The notes under the pieces are model-generated. The model was not told the origin of the DNA and made no database searches. It saw nothing but the letters and a program-made list of their open reading frames with translations. From a virus (lineage: Duplodnaviria > Caudoviricetes), in the IMG/VR virus record IMGVR_UViG_2758568729_000001, positions 32,001-96,000 of that record: a stretch of DNA of 64,000 nt; one strand, written 5' to 3'. The position numbers and the translations under genes were made by a program. Below are positions 10,058-48,333 of this stretch, one piece after another. Position 1 is the first letter of the stretch, and each line of letters begins with the position of its first letter.

Positions 10058-10992
10058 GCCGAACTGGGGCCGAGCTGCCCAGCCTCGGGCAGCTCGGCCT
10101 GTTCGACCCCGGGTGGTGCCAGCGCTGGACCAACGGCAAGAGCCTGTGGCTGCCGACCGGGGATGAGCGGTTCAACCCGAAGCGGCACACCGTACGGGCC
10201 ATCCCGGAGCAGGTGGCCCGTGCGTTCATCTCGACCCACCACTACAGCCACTCGTACCCCGCCGCACGCCTGAGGTACGGCCTCTTTGAGGGCTGCCACC
10301 TGGTCGGCGTAGCGGTGATCGGGCAGCCGATGCACCGGCAGGTCACCGGCAAACCGTTCCCGACGCTGGGCAAGACTGCGGCCGAGTTATCCCGGTTCGT
10401 TTTGCTCGATCCGGTTCCGCCCCCGGCGGAGAGTTGGCTCCTCGGCCGGGTGTTCCGGCTGGCCGCCGCCGACGGGCTCCGTGGCCTGGTCGCGTTCAGC
10501 GACCCCATGCCCCGGCTGGCTATCAACGGTCAGTTGATCATGCCTGGTCACGTCGGCACCATCTACCAGGCGACCAACGGCCGCTACACCGGCCGGGCCA
10601 CCCGGCGCACCCTCGTCGTGCTGCCGGACGGGACCGTGTTCAGCGAACGCAGCCTGCAAAAGATCCGGGGCTGCGAACGGGCCGACGGCGAGCCCATGTC
10701 CCGGCTGGTGACGTATGGCGCCGAGCCGTTCTCCCCGTACCTGCCGCCGGTGGGTTGGCTGCCGGGGGAGTGGAACCGGTTGGACCGGTGGGCCGACCTT
10801 GACCTGCGGGGCCGGCGGAAGGTGTGGCTAAAGCACGCGCTGACCTCGATCGGCGCCCGCCGGGCGCGACACCGGGGCAACCACCGGTTCGTCTGGCCGC
10901 TCGGAGACCGGTCGCAGCGTCGCCGCACGGTGATCGCCCTGGACGCGCAGCCCTACCCCAAGACGACAGATCCGTGGGACCTGGCGGCGTAA
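10054..10992 (+). CDS. Mom-family (GNAT-fold) DNA adenine modification protein
   Basis: ATGA coupling; FISTHHYSHSYP, LVGVAV.G.P, ELSRFVLLD, AESW, LVAFSDP, GHVGTIYQATN..YTG. Confidence 0.8.
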   Translation: MSRTGAELPSLGQLGLFDPGWCQRWTNGKSLWLPTGDERFNPKRHTVRAIPEQVARAFISTHHYSHSYPAARLRYGLFEGCHLVGVAVIGQPMHRQVTGKPFPTLGKTAAELSRFVLLDPVPPPAESWLLGRVFRLAAADGLRGLVAFSDPMPRLAINGQLIMPGHVGTIYQATNGRYTGRATRRTLVVLPDGTVFSERSLQKIRGCERADGEPMSRLVTYGAEPFSPYLPPVGWLPGEWNRLDRWADLDLRGRRKVWLKHALTSIGARRARHRGNHRFVWPLGDRSQRRRTVIALDAQPYPKTTDPWDLAA

Positions 10993-11013
10993 GCCGAAGA
11001 GAGGCAGGACAAC

Positions 11014-11265
11014 ATGGCCAAAACCACCGCAGAAGCTTCATACACCGGCGACCAGGTGGAGGAGGCGTTGAGCAGGGCGGTTGACGACCTCCTGGACCGG
11101 GTCCAGCCGCTCGGCGAGGAGATCGGCGATGCCTTGCGCGTGTTGATGAACGTCGGCATGCACTACCTGGAGCACCCGGATGCTGCCGACCTCGAAGAGG
11201 CCATCGGGGCGAAGTACGCCGAGGACCCGGAGACCGTCATGGGGTGGGTGGCTGCGTGCGACTGA
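11014..11265 (+). CDS. Small acidic hypothetical protein
   Basis: 83 aa, E/D-rich, RBS AGGA. Confidence 0.6.
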   Translation: MAKTTAEASYTGDQVEEALSRAVDDLLDRVQPLGEEIGDALRVLMNVGMHYLEHPDAADLEEAIGAKYAEDPETVMGWVAACD

Positions 11266-11383
11266 CCTCGTCAGCGGCTCGACACGGCACCGGCCCGCCG
11301 ATCGGGCTGTACCCGCTCCCCGAGGACATCGACCGCCGGTCGTGATCAACAATGATCCGATCAGTGGAGAGGCCCGGACGACG

Positions 11384-12037
11384 ATGAACACGCCCACCCC
11401 CAGCCCGGCCCAGCTCAGAGCTTTGCTCGCCGCACTGGCCGGCGACCTCGCTGCTATCCAAACTGGTCGAACCACCAGGCGACGACTGGCTGCCAACGGA
11501 TGGCTCGACGGCCCGCACGCCGACTCGGAGATCACCGACGACGGCCGCGATGCAGCTCGGCGCGCATACCCACACGGGTACGCCGACGCCCTCTCCGTTG
11601 ACGAGGTCCCCGCCGAACTCGACCGGATCGTGGAGCCAGGCGAGCAGGCGTACGCGGTGTACAGGTGGAGCCGCGATCACCGGAAGTACGGGATCGCCGC
11701 TGCGGTTGCCGTCTTCGCCAACTACGGCATTGCCGAGGCGTACGCGGTTGCGCGGGAGCTGGTCGTCAGGTCGGTCTGGCGGGACCTGGGACCGGCGCCT
11801 GTTCCTGTGCTGGAGTCGACCCCGACCCCGGAGCCAACCCCGGATCCGGAGCCGGATCCGGACGACACGGTCCGCGTCGCAGGGGAGGGCGACGGTCGGT
11901 ACCGGGTCATCCGTCACGACGCCTCCGGCACCTGGGCCCTGATCGTGGCCGCCGACGTTGATCCCGACTCGACGCGGGGCGCCCGTTGGGTGTCGACACA
12001 CGAGGTCCGGTCGGCTCCGGACAAGGCGCCAGCCTGA
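11384..12037 (+). CDS. Hypothetical protein with N-terminal module paralogous to 8522-10057
   Basis: PSPAQLRALLAALAG...GWLDG...ITDDGRDAARRAYPHGYADAL. Confidence 0.65.
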   Translation: MNTPTPSPAQLRALLAALAGDLAAIQTGRTTRRRLAANGWLDGPHADSEITDDGRDAARRAYPHGYADALSVDEVPAELDRIVEPGEQAYAVYRWSRDHRKYGIAAAVAVFANYGIAEAYAVARELVVRSVWRDLGPAPVPVLESTPTPEPTPDPEPDPDDTVRVAGEGDGRYRVIRHDASGTWALIVAADVDPDSTRGARWVSTHEVRSAPDKAPA

Positions 12038-12093
12038 GCGAGCTGCTGATACCCCGAGGGCCGGATCGCCGACCGTCGGCGCCACACCCAAAA

Positions 12094-12150
12094 AACTTGA
12101 TAGATATTGCCGCCAGCGTGACCTTCCTGCGGTAACTTGGTAGATGTAAG
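12094..12150 (+). promoter_or_regulatory. Paired-box promoter (boxes 12094 and 12134)
   Basis: AACTTGATAGATAT / AACTTGGTAGATGT, 40 bp apart. Confidence 0.85.
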
Positions 12151-12176
12151 TGCTACCGATTTGCGAGGGAGTCACG

Positions 12177-12677
12177 ATGACCGCCAACGACCGCCTCTGG
12201 GCCGCATTCACCGCCTCCCACCCCGCCGAGGCCGCCCTGATCTGGGCCAACGAAACGTCGGCCCGACCCAACGCGCCCCTCGGCTACGCCTACAGCTCCG
12301 TTGCTGTCGCCGACGAAGCCGACACCAACCCCGAGCAGGCGTTGTGCCTCGTCGCCGACTACCTGACCAGCGTCCAGGACCAGACCATCGGCGGGCGCCC
12401 CCTCCGCGACTACCTCCCCCTCAAGCGAGACGAATACCTCGCCTGCCCCGGGCACCGCACGGACAACACCGCCGGCTACGTCATCCGACTCACCGTCGCC
12501 GGGGGAGAGGTCGTCAAGACCCCGGACGGGCGAACCGGCATCGACGCCTTCGCCGTCGAGTGCGAGCCTCACTGGGGCAACTACGACAAGGCGATCAACG
12601 CCGCGTGCGCGCTCACGGATGAGCACACGTACGCCGTCACCGACCGCCTGTACCGGTGCGGTCACCGCTCGTACTGA
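12177..12677 (+). CDS. Hypothetical protein (single-gene cassette)
   Basis: RBS GAGGGAG; lies between a paired-box promoter and a terminator. Confidence 0.65.
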   Translation: MTANDRLWAAFTASHPAEAALIWANETSARPNAPLGYAYSSVAVADEADTNPEQALCLVADYLTSVQDQTIGGRPLRDYLPLKRDEYLACPGHRTDNTAGYVIRLTVAGGEVVKTPDGRTGIDAFAVECEPHWGNYDKAINAACALTDEHTYAVTDRLYRCGHRSY

Positions 12678-12685
12678 GCTGGCTG

Positions 12686-12718
12686 AGAAGGGGGGCCGGG
12701 CTACCTGGCCCCCCTTCT
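12686..12718. terminator. Intrinsic terminator hairpin
   Basis: AGAAGGGGGGCCGG-loop-CTGGCCCCCCTTCT. Confidence 0.7.
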
Positions 12719-12738
12719 GTGCGCCCGACTAGGGGGCA

Positions 12739-12793
12739 AACTCGGTAGATGAGATTGCCGGATCTCTGCCCCATGCCGTAGATTGATAGATAT
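12739..12793 (+). promoter_or_regulatory. Paired-box promoter, degenerate (boxes 12739 and 12780)
   Basis: AACTCGGTAGATGA / AGATTGATAGATAT, 41 bp apart; TTGCCG-18-TAGATT. Confidence 0.75.
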
Positions 12794-12833
12794 GAGGTAG
12801 TCCGACCGACCTAGCGACGAGGAGCCGAACCCT

Positions 12834-13562
12834 GTGACCACAACCAAAACCCACACCGCCGAACATCCCGGACCCATCACCCTGGACGCCCGACTCGCCA
12901 GCGGTGCCATCACCGTAACCGTCGAAGACCGCACCCACGCCGTCATCACCATCGCCACCGCCGACAACGACGGGACCTCGGCCAACGCGGTCAACGCCGC
13001 CCGCATCAACGACAGCGGCACGAAGATCGCGGTCGGCGTCGACACGGCCGGCGGCGGCAGCGGCGGAGTCGTCATCCAAAGCGGCGGTGTCCAGCGGAAC
13101 ATGTTCAACACCGGTGGCGGCGTCATGATCGCCGGGAACAACTACGGGGTGATCTCCACCGGCAACGGGAGCGTTGTCATCGGCGGCGGGGCCGTCGTGA
13201 TCGGCGGCAGCCCGATCTTTATCGAGGCCAAGCTCCCCGTCGGGTCGTCGTTGCTCGCGGAGACGACCGACGCCCGAGTGGAAACGACCGGCAGCCTGGA
13301 CCGGGCACAGGTCCGCACCATGTCCGGGCACATCCGGATCGACGCCGTGACCACCCCGGACCTGCACACCATGTCGGGTCACATCGACATCCGCGCCCTG
13401 TACGGCGACGGCCGGGCCGAAACCATGTCCGGCCGGATCACCGTGGTCGCGGCGGTCGAGTGCGCACTGCGCGCCCGGTCCATGTCGGGCGACATCGAGA
13501 TCTCGGGCGCCCGCGTCGACCTGGACGCCAGCACCATGTCCGGCCGGCTCCGGACCCGTTGA
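12834..13562 (+). CDS. DUF4097-like beta-strand repeat protein
   Basis: Repeated (T/S)MSGxI motifs; Gly/Val-rich beta repeats. Confidence 0.8.
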   Translation: MTTTKTHTAEHPGPITLDARLASGAITVTVEDRTHAVITIATADNDGTSANAVNAARINDSGTKIAVGVDTAGGGSGGVVIQSGGVQRNMFNTGGGVMIAGNNYGVISTGNGSVVIGGGAVVIGGSPIFIEAKLPVGSSLLAETTDARVETTGSLDRAQVRTMSGHIRIDAVTTPDLHTMSGHIDIRALYGDGRAETMSGRITVVAAVECALRARSMSGDIEISGARVDLDASTMSGRLRTR

Positions 13563-13591
13563 CCATCCCACTACTCACCTGAGGAGCTTCC

Positions 13592-13951
13592 ATGACCGAC
13601 CCCAGCGCCCACTGGGCCCCCCCGGGTGACGCCCGCCCACCTGGCAGGGCTGAACTCGCCGCCATGCTCCGCGCCGTCGCCAACCGCGGTGTCCTCACCC
13701 CGGCGATGGGGCGCCCGGAGGTGCTGGCCGGGATCAGGCGTAAGCGCTGGGCCACCACCCCGACGGATGGCACCCCGTCCACGCTCACCGAATTCGGTCA
13801 CCGTGTGACCCGGGGGGCGAATCCCGAGGCGTACGTGGCGGCGGTGCCCGACGAGCAGGTGCAGGCGTGGGCCGGTCTGATCGCTGCGGCCGAACGGGCA
13901 CCGGAGTCGACCGACCCGCCCGCTGATCACCGAGGAGGTGAAGCGCCGTGA
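13592..13951 (+). CDS. Hypothetical protein, divergent member of the 8522/11384 N-terminal family
   Basis: AELAAMLRAVAN...LTEFGHRVTRGANPEAY. Confidence 0.55.
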   Translation: MTDPSAHWAPPGDARPPGRAELAAMLRAVANRGVLTPAMGRPEVLAGIRRKRWATTPTDGTPSTLTEFGHRVTRGANPEAYVAAVPDEQVQAWAGLIAAAERAPESTDPPADHRGGEAP

Positions 13952-14907
13952 CAACCACGTTGACATATCCTGGTCCGGGTATCGCCTACCGCAACCCTGG
14001 ACCCGGAGCCGCCCGCATGCCCGAAGTTCCGTTTCTGACCCGGACCGACCTGGCCGCCATCGGCACAGAGGTATGGGGGGTGCCAGTCACCGAAACCAAG
14101 ATCACCGAGCTGGTTCGGGAATCACGGCCGGGCGGCAAATACGAGGACGACCCGTTCGTGGGGCCGGACTCCTACCTCGGCAACGCCCCCTGGTGGGCCA
14201 AGGGCCGGGGCCGGACGGTCACCGCCTGGTTCAAGCGGCACATGCCACCCCCCGTGGTCGACGCCGAAGCAGTCGCTGCCGAACGGCAACTCGAACTCGC
14301 CGACGTGCTCTGGTTGGAAGATGTCGCCGCGCTCGGCGGCGTACAAGAGAAGACCATCACCGACCACCTCTACCAGTCACAGGAAGAGGTCGGCGGGAAG
14401 CGCGGCGCAGCCAAGAAGCGGGGCAAGTGGGCCGACGACCCGTTCCCGGCACCGGAGGAGAAGCGGGCTGGACGGCGGGTGTACTGGAAGGCGGAGAGGC
14501 GAGACGAGATCCTGGCCTGGTTCGGCCGGCACCCGCGGCGGCAGGTTGGTGACGGAATCGGCGGGCCGAGCGGAATCACCCGGGCGGAGGCGCAGGGGTT
14601 GCAGCCGCCAAAGCCGCCGAAGCCGCCGAAGCCGCCAGTAAATGCGTCCCCACGCGAGTACCTGGATTGGGCGGCTGGCCACGCCCTTGACATCTACCTG
14701 GCCGGCGACACGGCCAGGGCTATCGACTCGTTCGCGGCCGACCTGGTGCAGCACGAGGGAACGACTCACATCGTTGAGGACCCGGAGTTCCGGTCAGCGA
14801 TGGCGGATGCGGCGGCGAAGGGGTGGGAGGCTTTCAAGGCGGCCATGTCTGGATGGCCGCTGCGGAAGCCGTCGGGGCGGTCGTCGAAGCCGCGCGTCAA
14901 GTCCTGA
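13948..14907 (+). CDS. DNA-binding protein with two tandem AlpA/Xis-like domains
   Basis: Two repeats of HTH...GK(Y/W).DDPF..P.......W.......AWF.RH; PKP linker; helical tail. Confidence 0.65.
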   Translation: MTTTLTYPGPGIAYRNPGPGAARMPEVPFLTRTDLAAIGTEVWGVPVTETKITELVRESRPGGKYEDDPFVGPDSYLGNAPWWAKGRGRTVTAWFKRHMPPPVVDAEAVAAERQLELADVLWLEDVAALGGVQEKTITDHLYQSQEEVGGKRGAAKKRGKWADDPFPAPEEKRAGRRVYWKAERRDEILAWFGRHPRRQVGDGIGGPSGITRAEAQGLQPPKPPKPPKPPVNASPREYLDWAAGHALDIYLAGDTARAIDSFAADLVQHEGTTHIVEDPEFRSAMADAAAKGWEAFKAAMSGWPLRKPSGRSSKPRVKS

Positions 14908-18594: not shown

Positions 18595-18984
18595 ATGTCC
18601 GACACCCTGACCCTCGCCCTGGCCGCGTACGACGAGGCCGACCCGGACAACCCCGCCGGCCGCCGCGTTCACGCTGCGGCCCTGTTCCGGGAGGCCACCG
18701 GCGCCACCCTCCGTGACTCGCTGGCCGCTGTGGACGAGGTCATCGCGGAGCGGACCACGTTCGAGAACCTGGAGCAGTTCCGGCAGCCCACCACGTTCGG
18801 GTGGCGGTACGAGTTCCCGAACAACCGGATGGTGACGGTCATCAACGACGACACCGCCCCGTTCAGGTTCGAGGTGCTGTCCGACGACCCGGCCGACGTG
18901 GCGACGGGCAACATCCGCCGGGGGCTCACCACCGAGCAGGTGGAGGCAAAGTTGGTGGCGATCTACGGGATGCCGGCGGTCTAG
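18595..18984 (+). CDS. Hypothetical protein
   Basis: RBS AAGGAG. Confidence 0.6.
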   Translation: MSDTLTLALAAYDEADPDNPAGRRVHAAALFREATGATLRDSLAAVDEVIAERTTFENLEQFRQPTTFGWRYEFPNNRMVTVINDDTAPFRFEVLSDDPADVATGNIRRGLTTEQVEAKLVAIYGMPAV

Positions 18985-19003
18985 CCGGGGGAGCGGTTCA
19001 AGG

Positions 19004-19059
19004 AACTTGATAGATGCTCTTGCCTCACGTGGTACGCGTGTGTAACTTGATAGATGTAA
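19004..19059 (+). promoter_or_regulatory. Paired-box promoter (boxes 19004 and 19044)
   Basis: AACTTGATAGATGC / AACTTGATAGATGT, 40 bp apart; TTGCCT-17-TAACTT. Confidence 0.85.
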
Positions 19060-19087
19060 CCGCTACCGAGGTACACCGGAGGACACC

Positions 19088-19456
19088 ATGCAGGCCACCA
19101 CCCTGAACCGCCGCCTCATCGCCTACAGCGCGCGCAGCACCGACGGTCCTATCGCCGACATCGTTCAGGGCATCGCCACCGTCATCACCACCCACACCCG
19201 GCCCACCTGGTCCGAGTGCGCCGAGCAGATCCCCGGCTACGTCACCGGCACCGACCTCGGGCCGGCGATCGAGTACACCCTCCGGTACACCCACTGCGGC
19301 CAGGACGTCGTTCGCGTGCTCGACGCGGCCGGGGTCGAGCGGATCGGCAAGGTCGTCATGGCCAGCAATGCCCGTACCGGGAACATCACCAACATCGCGG
19401 TCCTCGACGCCGACGGCGGGGACGTCACCTTCGACTTCGCCTGCTTCCGCGACTGA
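19088..19456 (+). CDS. Hypothetical protein
   Basis: RBS GGAGG. Confidence 0.65.
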   Translation: MQATTLNRRLIAYSARSTDGPIADIVQGIATVITTHTRPTWSECAEQIPGYVTGTDLGPAIEYTLRYTHCGQDVVRVLDAAGVERIGKVVMASNARTGNITNIAVLDADGGDVTFDFACFRD

Positions 19457-19486
19457 CCCCCACTTCGCCCACCTACATGCTCAACC

Positions 19487-19534
19487 GGGCCGTACCGGCG
19501 CACCAGCAGGGTTCGAATCCCTGACGGCCCACCA
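19487..19534 (+). ncRNA. tRNA-like minihelix (acceptor stem + T-arm + ACCA; no D or anticodon arm)
   Basis: GGGCCGT-13 nt-CAGGG TTCGAAT CCCTG-ACGGCCC-ACCA; all 12 stem pairs Watson-Crick. Confidence 0.65.
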
Positions 19535-19568
19535 AAGCAGGACCCCAACGAACACCGGAGAACCCGAC

Positions 19569-20132
19569 ATGACGACTCCACCGGTAGATCCGAAGATCTA
19601 CACCTCCGACGCCGAACCCGGCGACGTCCTCATCCAACTCAGCTACCCCACGTCGAACCTGGACGACGCAGGCATTGCCGAGCTCGGCGTCACCGACCGC
19701 ATGTCGGGACAGGCGTTGGTCCGGGTCCGCATGAACGCTGAACAGTTCCTCGGCGTCATGTCGAACACCGGAACCGTCGTCGGCGGCGCGGTCGTGCCGG
19801 TCCACCCGGAACGCATCGGGAAGCGGTCGCAGCACACCTCCACCGCCATCGCACGCAACAGCGACCTGGACCCCGAGCAGGTCAAAGCCGACTACCTGGC
19901 CAACGGGTGGGACACCGTTCGGATCAGCAAGACGAACTCCGGGCAGCAGGTATCGGCAACCCGGTGGGTCACCGACGGGCCGGAGCCGGTGGCGACAACG
20001 CCGGTCGACGTGGAGGCGGTCATGGCGATGGTCACCGAGTACGGCGCCGAATGCAGCAAGGACGCCGGGCTCACCGACCGGGCGATGGAACTCCGCGACG
20101 CGATCCGCGCCGCCATCACCGGGCAGGAGTAA
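19569..20132 (+). CDS. Hypothetical protein
   Basis: RBS GGAG; codon usage. Confidence 0.6.
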   Translation: MTTPPVDPKIYTSDAEPGDVLIQLSYPTSNLDDAGIAELGVTDRMSGQALVRVRMNAEQFLGVMSNTGTVVGGAVVPVHPERIGKRSQHTSTAIARNSDLDPEQVKADYLANGWDTVRISKTNSGQQVSATRWVTDGPEPVATTPVDVEAVMAMVTEYGAECSKDAGLTDRAMELRDAIRAAITGQE

Positions 20133-20137
20133 GCGAC

Positions 20138-20728
20138 GTGACCCGCCAGACGACCGCCCCGCTGACCCACCTGTCGCTGAATGTCACCAACCGGTTCGCG
20201 GACTTCTTCGTGCGCAACGTCGAGCGGGGCAACATACTCCTCGACGCCCCATACCAGCGCGGCTCCGTCTGGAGCGAAAGTCAGCGCATGGGACTGGTTC
20301 GCTCGTGGCTGATGGGCCTGCCGATCCCGGCGGTCGTCATCAACGACCGCACGTCGCCGGACTGGGCCCGCGCCAACCCGCAGGACCGCGAGGGAACCGG
20401 GTACGTGTACGCGGTCATCGACGGGAAGCAGCGGATCCTCACCGCCGTCGCCTGGTTCGGTGGCGAGCTGCGCGTGCCAGCCTCGTGGTTCCCCGCCAAA
20501 CACGTCGCCACCACGGAGGACACCGACGACGGCCCGCACGTCAGGTTCACCGGCCTCACCGAGGTCGGCCGCCGGTTCGCCGAGAACCGATGCGTGCTGC
20601 CCTGCGCCGAGGGTCGCCTTGCCAGCGTCGAGCAGGAGGCCGAGGTCTACCTGCTCGTTAACGGCGGCGGGACGCCGCAGACCACCACCGACATGGCCAA
20701 CGCCCGGCGTGTGGCCGAGGGGAAGTGA
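20138..20728 (+). CDS. Stand-alone DUF262 (GmrS-like, ParB/Srx fold) domain protein
   Basis: PYQRGSVW, LVRSWLMGLPIP, VIDGKQR, YLLVNGGG. Confidence 0.8.
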   Translation: MTRQTTAPLTHLSLNVTNRFADFFVRNVERGNILLDAPYQRGSVWSESQRMGLVRSWLMGLPIPAVVINDRTSPDWARANPQDREGTGYVYAVIDGKQRILTAVAWFGGELRVPASWFPAKHVATTEDTDDGPHVRFTGLTEVGRRFAENRCVLPCAEGRLASVEQEAEVYLLVNGGGTPQTTTDMANARRVAEGK

Positions 20729-29780: not shown

Positions 29781-31061
29781 ATGACTACCGAAGTCGCGAC
29801 CCCACCAGCGGTGGAGAAGCCAAGCCCTGCCAAGGCACCCAAGGCGCAACCCACCGCCGACAAGCCCACCACCGTCCTCACCGTGCCCGCGAAGCCGGCT
29901 GCGGTTACCGGCGCCAACGTGGTCGCAATCGGCGGCACCGCAGCCGCTGCCGCCGGCCCGGTTGGTTGGGCTGTCGCCGCCGTCGTAGCCGGTGGCGCGG
30001 TCGCCGGGTACACCGTCCGCCGGGCGGTGATCCGCCGCAACGCGAAGGCTGACGGCGGCGGGACCCCGGGTGTCGGTCCTCTGTTCAGTGGCCGGCCACC
30101 TGCCGGCGGGGGGCGTAACAAGGGCTCGCGTGCCGGGGGAGGGGCGTCGAACCGGGCCGGGTCTGGCGGTACGAGCGGTGGTCGGTCGGACCGGTCGGGT
30201 GGCTCCTCGCGCACCGCAGCGCAGAGGGCGAAGTCGGCGGGCCGCAGCCTCCTGGACCGGCTGGGCCGCAAACCCGGCGGAGACAAGTCACCGGGCGGTG
30301 GGGGCGGGCGCAACAAGCGCACCACTGGAGGGCCGGCAAGCAAGATGAGCCGGGCCGCCGGCCGGGCCGCAGCCAGCGCAGCACGAGGGCTGTGGAACGC
30401 GGTCAAAGCACAACGGACCGCAGCCGCGAAGAAGAAGCAAGACCGCGCTGCCGCCGGCAAGAAGACGAAGCCTCAGAAGGCGTGGGGGTGGGCGCGGAAG
30501 ATCACGCGCCGGGTCCTCGGAAAGAAGGACCAGCCCAAGCCGGCCGCTAAGACACCCACGACGAAACCCGAAGCCCCGCGCGTGACCGGCGACAAGGTCC
30601 GCCGCGGTCAGGCGCCCGACGCCACCAACCAGAACCCGAGCAAGCCGGCGACCAACCGGGCCGCCCGCACCACCGAAAGGAACCCTCTCATGGGTAACAA
30701 CAACGCACAGCAGAGCACCAGCCCATTCTGGGCGGCGGCCCGGCAGGTCCACGCCACCGCAGCCCAGCACAAGCCCCGTGGCATGCTCGCCCGCCGGCAG
30801 GAGGCATTCGAGATGCCCGCCGCGCTCGGTGAGATCGCCGCCGGTCTGCGGCTCCTCGCCCAGACCCACACCTCCCAGGAGCCCCTGGAGCCGGCGTACG
30901 CCGCTGCGGTCATGCAGGTCGCCGCCACGGTCGAGTCCGCCGCCCAGGCGTCCCGCCACCTCGCCCCCGCCTTCGACGCACTCCACTCCGTCCAGGTCCG
31001 CCGGCTGTTGCAGCCGAAGGTCGGCGAGGACATGTGGGACACCGTCAACAACAAGCCCTGA
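29781..31061 (+). CDS. Transfer-associated protein (TM + basic Gly-rich linker + C-terminal helical domain)
   Basis: RBS AAGGAGG; immediately upstream of traB. Confidence 0.65.
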   Translation: MTTEVATPPAVEKPSPAKAPKAQPTADKPTTVLTVPAKPAAVTGANVVAIGGTAAAAAGPVGWAVAAVVAGGAVAGYTVRRAVIRRNAKADGGGTPGVGPLFSGRPPAGGGRNKGSRAGGGASNRAGSGGTSGGRSDRSGGSSRTAAQRAKSAGRSLLDRLGRKPGGDKSPGGGGGRNKRTTGGPASKMSRAAGRAAASAARGLWNAVKAQRTAAAKKKQDRAAAGKKTKPQKAWGWARKITRRVLGKKDQPKPAAKTPTTKPEAPRVTGDKVRRGQAPDATNQNPSKPATNRAARTTERNPLMGNNNAQQSTSPFWAAARQVHATAAQHKPRGMLARRQEAFEMPAALGEIAAGLRLLAQTHTSQEPLEPAYAAAVMQVAATVESAAQASRHLAPAFDALHSVQVRRLLQPKVGEDMWDTVNNKP

Positions 31062-31074
31062 TCGGACGACGACG

Positions 31075-33357
31075 ATGACGACGAGCAAGCGACGCCAGAA
31101 CAAGAACTGGCAGCTCGACTGGGCTGGCCGGCACGGCACCGCCTGGGGCACCGTCAACGCCTGCCTCACGGTGGTGTCCGTGGCGGTCGTCGGCCGGTAC
31201 GTGCAGGGCTGGTGGCCGATCCGGGAAACCCCGATGCTGCTGTTCGCCGCTGCGCTGACCGTGCTCGCCGTCGTCGCCGTTCTCGGCCGGGCGGCGGTAC
31301 GGAAGACCGGCACACCGGGCGCGACCGTCTTCTACCAGGTGTGCTGCATGGTCGGCGCCGGCATCTGGGTCATGTTCATGTACGCGGCCGACCAGTGGAC
31401 ATGGCGGTCGGTGATCTCCGGTGTCGCCGCCCTCGCGTTCGCGGCCATCGTCGCCGGGGTGCTCGCCGGGCTCGCGTCCGACGACCCACCCCCGGCAGAC
31501 GACGAGAAGAAGGAGGAGGAGGTTCCAGCTCGGCCGACCGTCGGCCCCGACGGGAACCCGGACGAGACCCTGCCAAAACGCAACGCCCTCGCGATCGAGT
31601 GGGAAGAACGGCTCAACCGGCTGTGCGACGTGCCGAAGGGCAGCACCGTGCAGGTGCCAAACGTCGAACTGTGGCCCAAGGGCAACGGGTACACCGTGGA
31701 AGCGGTCATGCCGGCCGTTGGTGGGTTGTCGTGGAAGACGGTCAACCAAGCGGCCGACTCGCTCGCCAACGACCTCGACCTTGACGAAGGGTGCCGCCTG
31801 AACGTCGAGATGGGGCCGTCCCGTCGGGTCGCGCTCATCGAGGTGATGACCCAATCGACCTTAGGGGAGGACCAACCGTACGGGGACGACTACAGCCCTC
31901 TGTCGATCTACGACCCACTCCCCGGTGCCGTACGCGATGACGGCACGGAGATCGGCCCCGAACTGCGGTCGAAGTGCATGCTCCTCGTCGGCGAAACCGG
32001 GTCCGGTAAGACCAACGCCGGCAACGTCATCGGCGTAGGCGTGGCCCGCTGCCGCGACGCCCTGCTGTGGGACATCGATTTCACTGCCGGCCTGTACCTC
32101 AACCTCCTCGCCGCGTTCATGGCAGGCAAGGCCAAGCAGCCGGCAGTCGACTGGGCGGCGTGGGACGAACACGAAGCCCTGCTGATGACCCGCGCGGCGA
32201 TGCGCGGCCACCGGGCTCGGAAGTCCGGCTACCTGGAGCTGATGCGCGAGGTCGATGACGACAAGATCCCCGTGTCGGCGGAGGTGCCCGAGGTGGTCAT
32301 CCGGGCGGACGAGATCAAACGCATCACCGGTGCCCCCTCCGAGTACCCCGAACTCAAGCAGCACCTCAGCGACATCATTTTTGAGGGGCGTGCGGCGGCC
32401 TTCCGGGAAGTCCTCCTCGGGCTCCGGGCCACAGCGGACATCGTCGACACCGGCATCCAGGCCCAGTGCGGTGTGATCGCGGTGACCCGGGCCAAGTCCG
32501 ACGCCGAGTACGCGTGGGCGTTCGGGTGGCACTCCGGCGCCACCGTGGAAGGCGCACCCCACCCTGGGTGCGGCTTCATCTCATTGGAGTCCGGGGCGAA
32601 GCCAATCCCGGAGAAGTGGCGCAGGCTGCGCCCCAAGCAGTTGATGGAGGTAGGCATGGCCGTGGACGGTATTCAGCCACAGATGGACGAACTGACCCGG
32701 CTGGCACTCGACGGACGGAACCCGGACGGGACACCGATGCAGGGGCTCCTCCCCGGTGACCTGGACTGCTACTCGACTAGGTGGGAGAGGTTCCGGGACC
32801 GGTTCGGCGGTGACCACCCGTCGCAGCCGGGGCTGCCGACGCCGCCGGCCGACGATGTCGAGTCGAACGCCGCCCAGGGTGTGCGCAGCGAGGGCGACGA
32901 GCTGCCGACGCCGCCGGCCGGGCCGGTCGTGTCTCAGGCGCAGGCGCTTTCCGACCTCGCCGCCACGATGGCCACTCTTCAGGAGGCGGTCGCCAAGGCC
33001 AAGGCCGAGCACGGCGAGGATGCCAACCTGCCCCCGTATGACCCGCAACTGCACGCCGATTTCGATGCCATTCTCGAAGCCGAAGGGTTCGGCACTGATG
33101 TGGACTGGGGTGACCCGGACAACTGGGCAACGCTGGTGGAGAGCGCACCGCAGCCCGACGACGAGGACAAGCTGCTCAACCTGATCCGTGATGCCGGCCC
33201 GACCGGTGCCCGCCCTCGGGACCTGCTGAACCAGTTGAAGGAGCAGCACGGCATCGTCACCAGCCGGGACACACTCCACACCCGGTTGCGGGCTCTCCGC
33301 GACGCCGGCAAGGTCCACAACCGGGAACACGGCCGCTGGAAGCTTGAGACGAACTGA
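31075..33357 (+). CDS. traB: TraB-like FtsK/SpoIIIE conjugative dsDNA translocase
   Basis: N-terminal TM helices, Walker A GETGSGKT, Walker B VVIRADE, GRAAAFREVLLGLRAT, C-terminal winged helix. Confidence 0.8.
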   Translation: MTTSKRRQNKNWQLDWAGRHGTAWGTVNACLTVVSVAVVGRYVQGWWPIRETPMLLFAAALTVLAVVAVLGRAAVRKTGTPGATVFYQVCCMVGAGIWVMFMYAADQWTWRSVISGVAALAFAAIVAGVLAGLASDDPPPADDEKKEEEVPARPTVGPDGNPDETLPKRNALAIEWEERLNRLCDVPKGSTVQVPNVELWPKGNGYTVEAVMPAVGGLSWKTVNQAADSLANDLDLDEGCRLNVEMGPSRRVALIEVMTQSTLGEDQPYGDDYSPLSIYDPLPGAVRDDGTEIGPELRSKCMLLVGETGSGKTNAGNVIGVGVARCRDALLWDIDFTAGLYLNLLAAFMAGKAKQPAVDWAAWDEHEALLMTRAAMRGHRARKSGYLELMREVDDDKIPVSAEVPEVVIRADEIKRITGAPSEYPELKQHLSDIIFEGRAAAFREVLLGLRATADIVDTGIQAQCGVIAVTRAKSDAEYAWAFGWHSGATVEGAPHPGCGFISLESGAKPIPEKWRRLRPKQLMEVGMAVDGIQPQMDELTRLALDGRNPDGTPMQGLLPGDLDCYSTRWERFRDRFGGDHPSQPGLPTPPADDVESNAAQGVRSEGDELPTPPAGPVVSQAQALSDLAATMATLQEAVAKAKAEHGEDANLPPYDPQLHADFDAILEAEGFGTDVDWGDPDNWATLVESAPQPDDEDKLLNLIRDAGPTGARPRDLLNQLKEQHGIVTSRDTLHTRLRALRDAGKVHNREHGRWKLETN

Positions 33358-44300: not shown

Positions 44301-44798
44301 TCAGAAAGGCCAGGTGCCGTTCCGCCGGGCTTCGAGGAGCGGGATCATGCCGAAGCCCTGATCGGTCAACCCCCCGAACGTGTGCCGGTTCGCCACCCCC
44401 GACGAGGCGTGGCCGTGCTGGTACCCGGCCAGGTTCCACGTGTACATCGGAACAGACTCCGGTACGGCCCGGTCGACCTCGCTCAAGTCCTGACCCGCCT
44501 GCTCATCGGTCAGGATGACCACCCGGTCGTGGCCGGCGAAGTGCTTGCGTACCGCAGCCGCGGTGGCCGTCCCGCCGCCGAGGAACCAGCCGCCGGACTT
44601 CCACCGGTCGATCGACCGAAGCAGCGACTCACCACCGGTCAGCGGGAACACCTTCGTGTGGGCCCCGGCGACATCACCCCAGTAGCGGGCGGTCGACGAG
44701 AACGACACCACCTCCGCGTTCTGGGCGCGCTGGGCGAGCGCCACCCCGAAGATTACGGCCGCGTCCCACCTCATCAGGGTGCCGTCCTTGCTGAACCC
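44301..44798 (-). pseudogene. 3' fragment of Ro60/TROVE gene (partial vWA domain)
   Basis: DAAVIFGVALA, GGGT.TAAAVRKHF..HDRVVILTDEQ, YTWNLAGY..GH, RHTFGGLTD..F.MIPLLE....WPF; TROVE domain and DxSxS absent. Confidence 0.75.
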
Positions 44799-45136
44799 CT
44801 CGTTATCCCGCACCCGATCGAGGTGGCGTAACCCGGGCACGCCGAAACGGCCCCCACCCGGACCTCCGAAGAGGCCGAGTGGGGGCCGTTGCCTGCTGTG
44901 GCACCCGCAGGCTCGGTCACCAGGTTCACCGCTGGTGCGGTTGGCGCGGACGCACGTGGCTACGTCCGGTTGCGCCGCGAGGGCCCCATGTCCACGGCGG
45001 GGCCTCATTTTTAGGAGTAGGTGGCGGGTGGCCCTTCGCGTCCGGCTGTCGGCATCGCACCCGCGTGTTGGTGGCCCGTCCCCGTCCGGTTACCCGGCGC
45101 TTCTCGGCATCGCACCAACATGGTCGATGTTACGCC

Positions 45137-47409: not shown

Positions 47410-48333
47410 TCACCCGCCCGTTGGGGTGGCGCCGTCCACGGAACCGAGGACGGTGGTGAGTGCGGCGACGAGGTCGTCACGGTCTACGGGGCCCTGCTGC
47501 GGCAGCCGGGCCATGATGTCGGCGACGACGCCGCTGCGGATTTCCCTTGCCTGCTGGTCGATGCGGGCGAGGATCGCGGACTCGTCCACGCCGTCGCCGA
47601 GGTTCGCAACGATGACCGCCAACTTGTCGTGGATCTTGTAGAACTCCTCGCGGACGTCGGTACGGCCGCCCCCGTCACGCCGCTGGGCACCCTGCCACAG
47701 CAGGTAGCTGATGTCTTTGAGCCAGGTGTACACCTGCCGCTGTTCGGTCGCGCTCAACTCGGCCATGAAGTCCTCCTCGTCGTCGGTTGTCTGGCCGTCG
47801 CCTACGAGGGCGACGGCTTGCCGAAGGATCTCGGCCTTCTGCGCCTTGATCGCCGGTCCGGGGCACTGGGAGTGGCCCCAGTCGTAGCCGGACTCGGCGC
47901 CCATGCTGTGGTGACCCAAACCGCGCCCGGCCGGGCTGTTCGCGAGCTGCAACGGGATCCCGTGTTCGCGGTGAGCACGGGCCAGGATCTTCGCGTTGGC
48001 TGTCACCTGCGCTGGGGTGAGCGCACCGGGGATGAACCCCTCGTTTTCGATGCTCAGCCAGCTTGAGTTGCCCGTCCGCTGCGTCCACGCCCGCTCTGCG
48101 GTGTCGACCACCTGGGCGATCCGGCCGTCCTTGGCCACCACGAAGTGCGACGACACGTCGGCGGACGGGTTCTTCTGCCACGAGATGGTGCCCTCGAAGT
48201 AGCCCTCAGCGATGTGGATGATCACGCCCCGGTGTTCAGCCAGCCGGTCGGCCGCCTCACCGGTTTTGCCATCCCCGTCACCCGAGTTGACCGTTGCTCC
48301 CCGCCACTGGGCGAGGTCTGTCCAGCGCCCCAT
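47410..48333 (-). CDS. Endolysin, N-acetylmuramoyl-L-alanine amidase (Amidase_2)
   Basis: VIIHIAEG, SSHFVV, AW...GN...SIENEG, GHH, H..CPG. Confidence 0.9.
   Translation of the reverse strand: MGRWTDLAQWRGATVNSGDGDGKTGEAADRLAEHRGVIIHIAEGYFEGTISWQKNPSADVSSHFVVAKDGRIAQVVDTAERAWTQRTGNSSWLSIENEGFIPGALTPAQVTANAKILARAHREHGIPLQLANSPAGRGLGHHSMGAESGYDWGHSQCPGPAIKAQKAEILRQAVALVGDGQTTDDEEDFMAELSATEQRQVYTWLKDISYLLWQGAQRRDGGGRTDVREEFYKIHDKLAVIVANLGDGVDESAILARIDQQAREIRSGVVADIMARLPQQGPVDRDDLVAALTTVLGSVDGATPTGG

Follow-up and report, generated by a model that had tools for sequence, protein, structure and literature searches.

A tRNA-like minihelix conserved in early operons of temperate actinophages and its putative role in RNA processing

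Plant mitochondria and mammalian nuclei offer well-documented cases of tRNA-like folds that draw RNase P and RNase Z to transcripts other than tRNA, and RNase P, RNase Z and the CCA-adding enzyme all act on minihelices made of an acceptor stem and a T arm. The mammalian mascRNA/MEN-beta element is of this kind: its acceptor-like stem and T arm are cut out of a long transcript by RNase P and RNase Z, after which CCA is added. In plant mitochondrial transcripts, t-elements, which are tRNA-like folds with the motif GGTTCRANYCC, lie beside protein-coding genes; mRNA ends generated by RNase P and RNase Z fall at their borders, and the excised elements are stable and receive non-encoded C or CCA (Forner et al. 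2007, PMC1920247). Here we analyse a 48-nt tRNA-like minihelix in a 64,000-nt stretch of DNA, referred to as the window, that forms part of a large temperate-phage-like element, together with six relatives in which conservation with covariation provides the decisive evidence for the structure. We propose, at a probability of roughly 0.55, that the minihelix is a tRNA-like element which is transcribed together with early genes and then cut out by RNase P and 3′ processing. If this is true, temperate actinophages would use the host tRNA machinery to shape their early messages or to make a small tRNA mimic. The minihelices apparently constitute a small undescribed family, as no description was found in Rfam or in the literature searched, and standard annotation overlooks the element entirely. 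Because the family is small, cleanly defined and supported by covariation, it is directly testable.

With the t-elements the minihelix shares its tRNA-like fold and the GGTTCRANYCC motif (at 19510-19520, one of only two occurrences in the window), placed inside what is probably a longer, mRNA-bearing transcript. It differs in that t-elements are organellar and mostly non-canonical cloverleaves of about 70 nt, whereas the minihelix is a 48-nt two-helix structure with a conserved linker in actinobacterial phages. We regard t-elements as the best functional analogy, one in which the processing of the minihelix is putative and the two elements are not homologous. The mascRNA-menRNA model (RF01684) provides the sole Rfam match to the minihelix at E ≤ 1 and the only model alignment over its whole length; the match is sub-threshold, with scores of 24.8 and 22.2 bits against a gathering threshold of 42.5. 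At 24.8 against 42.5 the minihelix is therefore not a member of RF01684, and mascRNA, which is mammalian and has a further arm (56-61 nt), is unrelated to it by descent. Compared with canonical tRNA (RF00005), the acceptor stem, T arm, discriminator and CCA of the window copy are indistinguishable, whereas the D and anticodon arms are missing and 13 nt lie between the acceptor and T stems. Lacking those arms, the minihelix cannot decode. The tRNA-like domain of tmRNA likewise combines an acceptor stem with a T arm and has a reduced D region, but tmRNA needs G3:U70 and its halves enclose pseudoknots and a tag ORF, whereas the minihelix has G3-C70 and occupies a contiguous 48 nt. An earlier note on this DNA, made from the letters alone, had set tmRNA and tRNA-Ala aside because of this pair, and the comparison agrees; the sole tmRNA of the genome, called by ARAGORN with tmRNA search, is at 5,480,785.

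The minihelix occupies positions 19487-19534 of the + strand, where its sequence matches the reading in the earlier note base for base (Table 1). Its tRNA features comprise the 7-bp acceptor stem, the 5-bp T stem and the universal T-arm nucleotides G53, T54, T55, C56, R57, A58 and C61, with G53-C61 paired; it also has G1 and a coaxial helix of 7 + 5 bp. Both the minimum-free-energy and the centroid folds of the 48-mer are the minihelix, which still forms when 152 nt of context are folded. Folding-energy z-scores, which are weak evidence and uninformative in GC-rich DNA, are -2.1 for the window copy and -1.6 to +0.1 for the relatives.

Table 1. Coordinates of the minihelix, of its neighbours and of tRNA-related genes in the carrier element (window positions unless a genome contig or locus is named)
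Feature	Position	Strand	Remarks
AACTYGRTAGATGTA copies	1857, 4940, 6271, 8441, 12134, 14957, 14997, 16945, 16984, 19044	+	
Box GTAACTTGATAGATGTAA..., repeat family D2	19042-19069	+	Copy ahead of gene 19088
Upstream early gene, 122 aa	19088-19456	+	GC3-based call; ends 30 nt before the minihelix
Acceptor stem, 5′ strand GGGCCGT	19487-19493	+	Pairs 7/7 with 19524-19530
Linker ACCGGCGCACCAG, 13 nt	19494-19506	+	Stands in for the D, anticodon and variable arms
T arm: stem CAGGG (19507-19511)/CCCTG (19519-19523), loop TTCGAAT (19512-19518)	19507-19523	+	
Acceptor stem, 3′ strand ACGGCCC	19524-19530	+	
Discriminator A (19531) and encoded CCA (19532-19534)	19531-19534	+	
Downstream early gene, 187 aa	19569-20132	+	ATG at 19569, GGAG 9 nt ahead
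tRNA array, 35 genes	Genome C1:8166942-8174402	-	14.5-22 kb before the window start
RNA-repair set	L317 (genome C1:8148000-8167000) 10927-14443	-	Pfam; adjoins the tRNA array

The suspicion of the earlier note that tRNA finders would miss such an element proved right: ARAGORN calls no tRNA gene in the 64,000-nt window, Rfam at gathering thresholds reports nothing at the minihelix, and the tRNA model RF00005 leaves it unmatched even at E ≤ 1. A descriptor scan of the 8.7-Mb genome, requiring a G53-TTCRA loop, 5/5 T-stem pairs and 7/7 acceptor pairs with G-U allowed and a linker of 0-29 nt, returned 10 matches, as against 2 when the genome was reversed. Of the 10, three fall within real tRNAs, and the window minihelix alone is Watson-Crick throughout and carries CCA. 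A link to Y RNAs through TROVE/Ro60 was rejected, with the ORF at 44301-45008 (minus strand) having no Pfam family at E ≤ 0.001 and Rfam finding no Y RNA. In the window sequence CCUGCUU (19440-19446) and AAGCAGG (19535-19541) are predicted to form a 7-bp helix around the upstream stop codon and the whole minihelix; this enclosing helix was not seen in the relatives.

The source genome consists of one 8.74-Mb contig with about 69% G+C, in which the window spans C1:8188949-8252948. Phage-like genes in the window encode a 1168-aa tape-measure-like protein, a Sipho_Gp37 tail protein, an HTH repressor-like protein and an FtsK/SpoIIIE-like protein, and the window is weakly similar to the Streptomyces phages ZL12 and Samy. 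The similarity to ZL12 is limited to one gene, without synteny. One gene downstream of the minihelix, a GmrSD_N/DUF262-domain protein is encoded at 20138-20728 (+), and the FtsK/SpoIIIE-like protein (phrog_31069) is encoded at 30778-33357 (+); the two suggest a phage-plasmid or conjugative flavour like that of ZL12.

Between 12 kb and 25 kb the window holds a series of small + strand genes of unassigned function, and it is here that the minihelix is found. As the earlier note had it, the element is intergenic, in a 112-nt gap between its two neighbours (GC3-based gene call), neither of which has a Pfam or PHROG match. The upstream gene is homologous to SAMYPH_72 of phage Samy (tblastn, 44% identity, E 6e-11). 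Homologues of the downstream gene occur in three related genomes (G280, G213 and G362), among which the minihelix is present only in G280, 1.1 kb ahead of the homologue; none was found in the 20 kb around the homologues in the other two. A search of public genome contigs for loci encoding the flanking proteins gave nothing, and the one weak viral locus obtained has no minihelix.

The box AACTYGRTAGATGTA is present in ten + strand copies in the window, every one ahead of a gene start and some paired 40 nt apart, and is probably the early promoter/operator of the phage itself. The copy at 19044 lies just before the upstream gene, so the minihelix follows the first cistron of a box-headed unit, and this copy is likely to be the promoter/operator of the transcription unit that holds it. 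The box is absent from the fetched loci around the minihelices of four relatives (G280, G285, G096 and L306). The earlier note had also pointed to a promoter-like pattern, CTGACC-17-CATGCT, immediately upstream of the minihelix. That proposal is unsupported, because neither a promoter-like nor a terminator-like site was found in 18800-19800; the stretch is, moreover, unconserved in the relatives.

The six relatives come from three prophages of the host family (G096, G280 and G285), two metagenome contigs (L304 and L305) and one IMG/VR contig (L306). The G280 copy was found by a structural scan of loci reached through the downstream protein, the G096 copy with a two-sequence covariance model, and the remaining four with an exact pattern built on the common linker and T arm. 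Together with the window copy, which has all of its features, they make a family of seven members, two of them closely related, defined by an acceptor stem of 6-7 bp, a linker ending GGCGCACC-N-G and a T arm C-R-GGG TTCGA-M-T CCC-Y-G, in intergenic positions within phage early operons. The CCA is encoded in two members only, the window copy and G096, the others continuing with A/G and then CTC, CTT or CGC; the discriminator varies among A, C and G.

This family is small and rare. Its carriers amount to 4 of about 400 host-family genomes, and each positive genome has exactly one copy. The covariance models R1 and R2, home-built models whose E-values are rough, score the genomic members at 60-71 bits and all else at 33 bits or less in the genomes searched; they retrieved no further member from 150 host-family genomes, 18 genomes of the genus of G280 or 150 of the class. 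A pattern search of 400 genomes of the order likewise gave no further member, and the order- and class-level searches produced just chance matches in coding DNA and one odd tRNA-Arg. No copy was found in GenBank phages and plasmids. The host-family pattern search at up to 3 mismatches was largely noise, with the four exact matches its only real ones; no conclusion here draws on G197, an unpublished genome met in that search. The first pattern applied to viral contigs, GGCGCACCAG..TTCRA, gave chance matches only.

All members are intergenic and on the same strand as their small early-gene neighbours, with the upstream stop codon about 4-35 nt before the minihelix and a ribosome-binding site and ATG about 30-45 nt after it. 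The neighbouring genes themselves are non-homologous between phages: an upstream neighbour of 90-122 aa is present in 4/7 members only, and no protein was found to co-occur with the minihelix in all of them. Between the upstream stop codon and the minihelix, five members (G096, G280, G285, L304 and L305) have a small stable hairpin 7-20 nt upstream of the element, for example GCACCC-TTCG-GGGTGC in G285 and L304 and GCGCC-CACCAA-GGCGC in G096; the window copy has none.

In the alignment of the seven members (A3), the GGCGCACC-N-G columns and most of the T arm are invariant and the acceptor strands are diverse. The linker is exactly 13 nt in six members and 22 nt in L306. Standard pairs fill 97.6% of the pair cells for the minihelix structure, and 7/12 pairs have changes on both sides, including compensatory double changes in 6/7 acceptor pairs and a T-stem pair that covaries from A-U to G-C. 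Both the covariation score and the percentage paired exceed those of all 500 shuffles, and pairing falls to 39-64% when the 3′ partners are slid by 1-3 columns. RNAalifold independently gives the same two helices, and each member folds alike on its own. Members retrieved by a pattern covering the linker and T arm only provide an independent test of the acceptor stem, and here pairing is 7/7 in L304 and 6/7 in both L305 and L306. Compensatory changes, which the earlier note had suggested looking for in related elements, keep the stems paired.

Around this structure the DNA is hardly conserved. Mean pairwise identity is 63% in the 150-nt upstream flank and 65% in the 150-nt downstream flank, values that compare with 60% in shuffled controls, and it is 65% in the acceptor strands. 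The linker core GGCGCACCNG and T arm reach about 92%, a figure that is partly inflated because members were found through that motif. The minihelix is not coding, since the frames of the upstream stops and downstream starts relative to it are inconsistent. Taken together, these patterns indicate that selection maintains the minihelix fold.

The earlier note had offered three readings of the element: a tRNA-mimic decoy for defence toxins acting on the acceptor/CCA end, a processing signal for the polycistronic mRNA and a cleanly deleted tRNA. From the anatomy, the processing signal appears to fit best, because the minihelix runs in the direction of its neighbours, lacks a promoter or terminator of its own and keeps all the universal T-arm nucleotides. 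We propose that the box promoter at about 19042 probably drives a polycistronic early message that includes the minihelix, and that this part of the transcript folds into the top half of a tRNA, as the covariation shows. Host tRNA-maturation enzymes, to judge from known minihelix substrates, would then handle it like a pre-tRNA, with RNase P cleaving directly 5′ of G19487 and the 3′ side being cut back to the discriminator or the CCA; CCA would be added where it is not encoded. Excision would separate the upstream cistron from the remaining operon, the upstream hairpin present in 5/7 members would shield the upstream message at its newly formed 3′ end, and a stable RNA of about 45-48 nt would be released that mimics the acceptor and elbow end of a tRNA.

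Some observations sit less easily with this scheme. Were the element a general punctuation device, several copies per phage would be expected, so the single copy per genome, against about ten box-headed units in this element, counts against processing in that general form. The invariant GGCGCACC is unexplained by processing, because RNase P needs no conserved linker; one speculation is that the GG of the linker makes a D-loop-like contact with the T loop. Residue N-1 is C in 5/7 members, which departs from the preference of Escherichia coli RNase P for U at this position.

The single copy per genome and an occurrence independent of any particular neighbouring gene tilt the balance towards a role for the released RNA beyond that of a by-product of excision. 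With one copy per genome, no constant partner gene, an invariant linker and tRNA-protection genes in the same element, it may itself be a selected product, processing then being just the means of its production. As an acceptor-end mimic it would compete with host tRNAs for a defence enzyme or another tRNA-binding factor, candidate targets being MenT/AbiEii-type nucleotidyltransferases, CapRel-type pyrophosphokinases and acceptor-stem nucleases. We consider this possible but on balance unlikely. Consistent with it are the single copy, the behaviour of the minihelix as an autonomous module that moves independently of neighbouring genes, and a sequence conservation beyond the needs of a cleavage signal. 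The carrier element, furthermore, holds a 35-tRNA array and an RNA-repair gene set (Table 1), so that tRNA-directed attack by the host is evidently a selective pressure, and the G285 minihelix contig also holds a tRNA array. The array of the carrier covers all 20 amino acids, with only about 8 of its genes encoding CCA, and the repair set comprises a T4 Rnl1-like RNA ligase, a PNKP (kinase and HAD phosphatase), an RlaP pol-beta-type nucleotidyltransferase and a SAK-type HAD phosphatase. An encoded CCA in just two members, together with a discriminator and acceptor sequence that are free to vary, would be odd for the decoy of a sequence-specific enzyme. Further points against a decoy are that no tRNA in the host or the phage array has this acceptor stem, the nearest differing at 6 of 32 positions, and that the PNKP genes of G280, G285 and G096 are not on the minihelix contigs.

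A more specific form of the idea, to which we attach still less confidence, is that the excised minihelix is an early anti-defence RNA, a minimal acceptor/elbow mimic that would soak up a toxin or nuclease attacking acceptor/CCA ends and so add a third layer beside the tRNA array and the RNA-repair enzymes. The heavy investment of the carrier element in tRNA protection makes such a role of interest. Arrays are also seen elsewhere among the relatives: in G285 the array lies at about 124.9-127.5 kb of contig C2, about 34 kb from the minihelix on the same 131-kb contig, and is duplicated on C1, and G280 has tRNA arrays on several repeat contigs (C6, C8, C9 and the start of C7). A second armless mini-RNA lies in the array of the carrier, where a 50-nt spacer between tRNA-Phe and tRNA-Glu (genome C1:8173926-8173975, minus strand) folds as an 11-bp stem, with a 6-nt bulge and a 5-bp hairpin whose loop is CGAGGCA, and ends TCCA; it was rejected as a family member, its 11-bp stem and non-T loop making a different fold.

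Alternatively, the minihelix could remain in the message and work in cis, for example by binding a protein or by influencing the stability or translation of the downstream cistron. Its constant placement some 30-45 nt ahead of a ribosome-binding site and ATG would suit this, and the invariant linker could bind a protein. We nevertheless judge a cis-acting role improbable, given that the downstream genes are non-homologous between members and that a cis regulator would have no need of the full universal T-arm set or of the exact 7 + 5-bp tRNA geometry; nor does any protein co-occur in all members, the 90-122-aa upstream neighbour being confined to four.

The third suggestion of the earlier note, a cleanly deleted tRNA, holds up as a possible origin and fails as a neutral relic. 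In L306 an inserted CGCC pairs with a conserved GGCG to form a third small arm. Phage Samy has, directly after SAMYPH_72, an unannotated full-size tRNA-like element of 76 nt (OR263580, about 47873-47948; L210 2819-2894), which ARAGORN calls tRNA-Gly(ccc) with the anticodon loop ACCCCCA (no U33 and no purine 37) and a degenerate D arm, and which RNAfold instead folds as a long hairpin with a 5-nt loop; its single-stranded AUAGGC resembles the GUAGGC of three minihelices. The third arm of L306 and the Samy element make it plausible that the family descends from a tRNA-like ancestor that lost its middle. The acceptor stem is itself familiar, GGGCCGT/ACGGCCC-A being a common tRNA-Lys stem in other phyla: the exact acceptor-stem pattern has at least about 200 matches in public genomes and viral contigs, mostly tRNA-Lys, and among the matches listed all are full-length tRNAs, with no other 45-nt form.

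That the element is now a neutral relic, a phage tRNA gene whose middle was lost by deletion, seems very improbable all the same. A tRNA-derived origin, the tRNA-Lys type of its acceptor stem, the full-size element at the matching position in Samy, the extra arm of L306 and the richness of the phage element in tRNA genes would all fit such a relic. The 13-nt-linker architecture has, however, persisted although the flanks diverged to background identity, and 6/7 acceptor pairs have changed and are still paired, where neutral decay would break the helices. Covariation appears largely to refute this reading: compensatory stem changes in the relatives mean that the minihelix is neither a decaying tRNA remnant nor an att-site relic, the former being excluded by stem covariation amid flanks at background identity and the latter by the covarying stems and the location inside an early operon.

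We give least credence to a role at the DNA level, as an attachment site or its relic, a landing site or a recombination boundary between gene modules: the minihelix does sit at mosaic junctions of non-homologous genes, and tRNA 3′ halves are classic integration targets, but even with up to 2 mismatches allowed no host tRNA has its T arm and 3′ acceptor strand, it lies inside the early operon of the integrated element and not at an end or beside an integrase, att relics lack a covarying 5′ strand, and the divergence of the stems removes the homology that a recombination linker needs, yet pairing is kept. The same search with the T arm and 3′ acceptor strand matched only the minihelix itself in the genome, and the closest of the 114 ARAGORN-called genes differs from it at 6 of 32 compared positions. 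The argument of the earlier note against an attP remnant thus stands, there being no host tRNA match and a covarying 5′ strand being present.

Separately, a further tRNA-like fragment was observed on the minus strand of a host-family locus (L298, G188:C3:27951-28375) at positions 179-238. It combines a 7-bp acceptor stem and a perfect T arm with a 25-nt linker, lies some 100 nt ahead of a normal tRNA-Lys(ttt) in the same orientation, and may represent a further truncated tRNA-like element within the host family.
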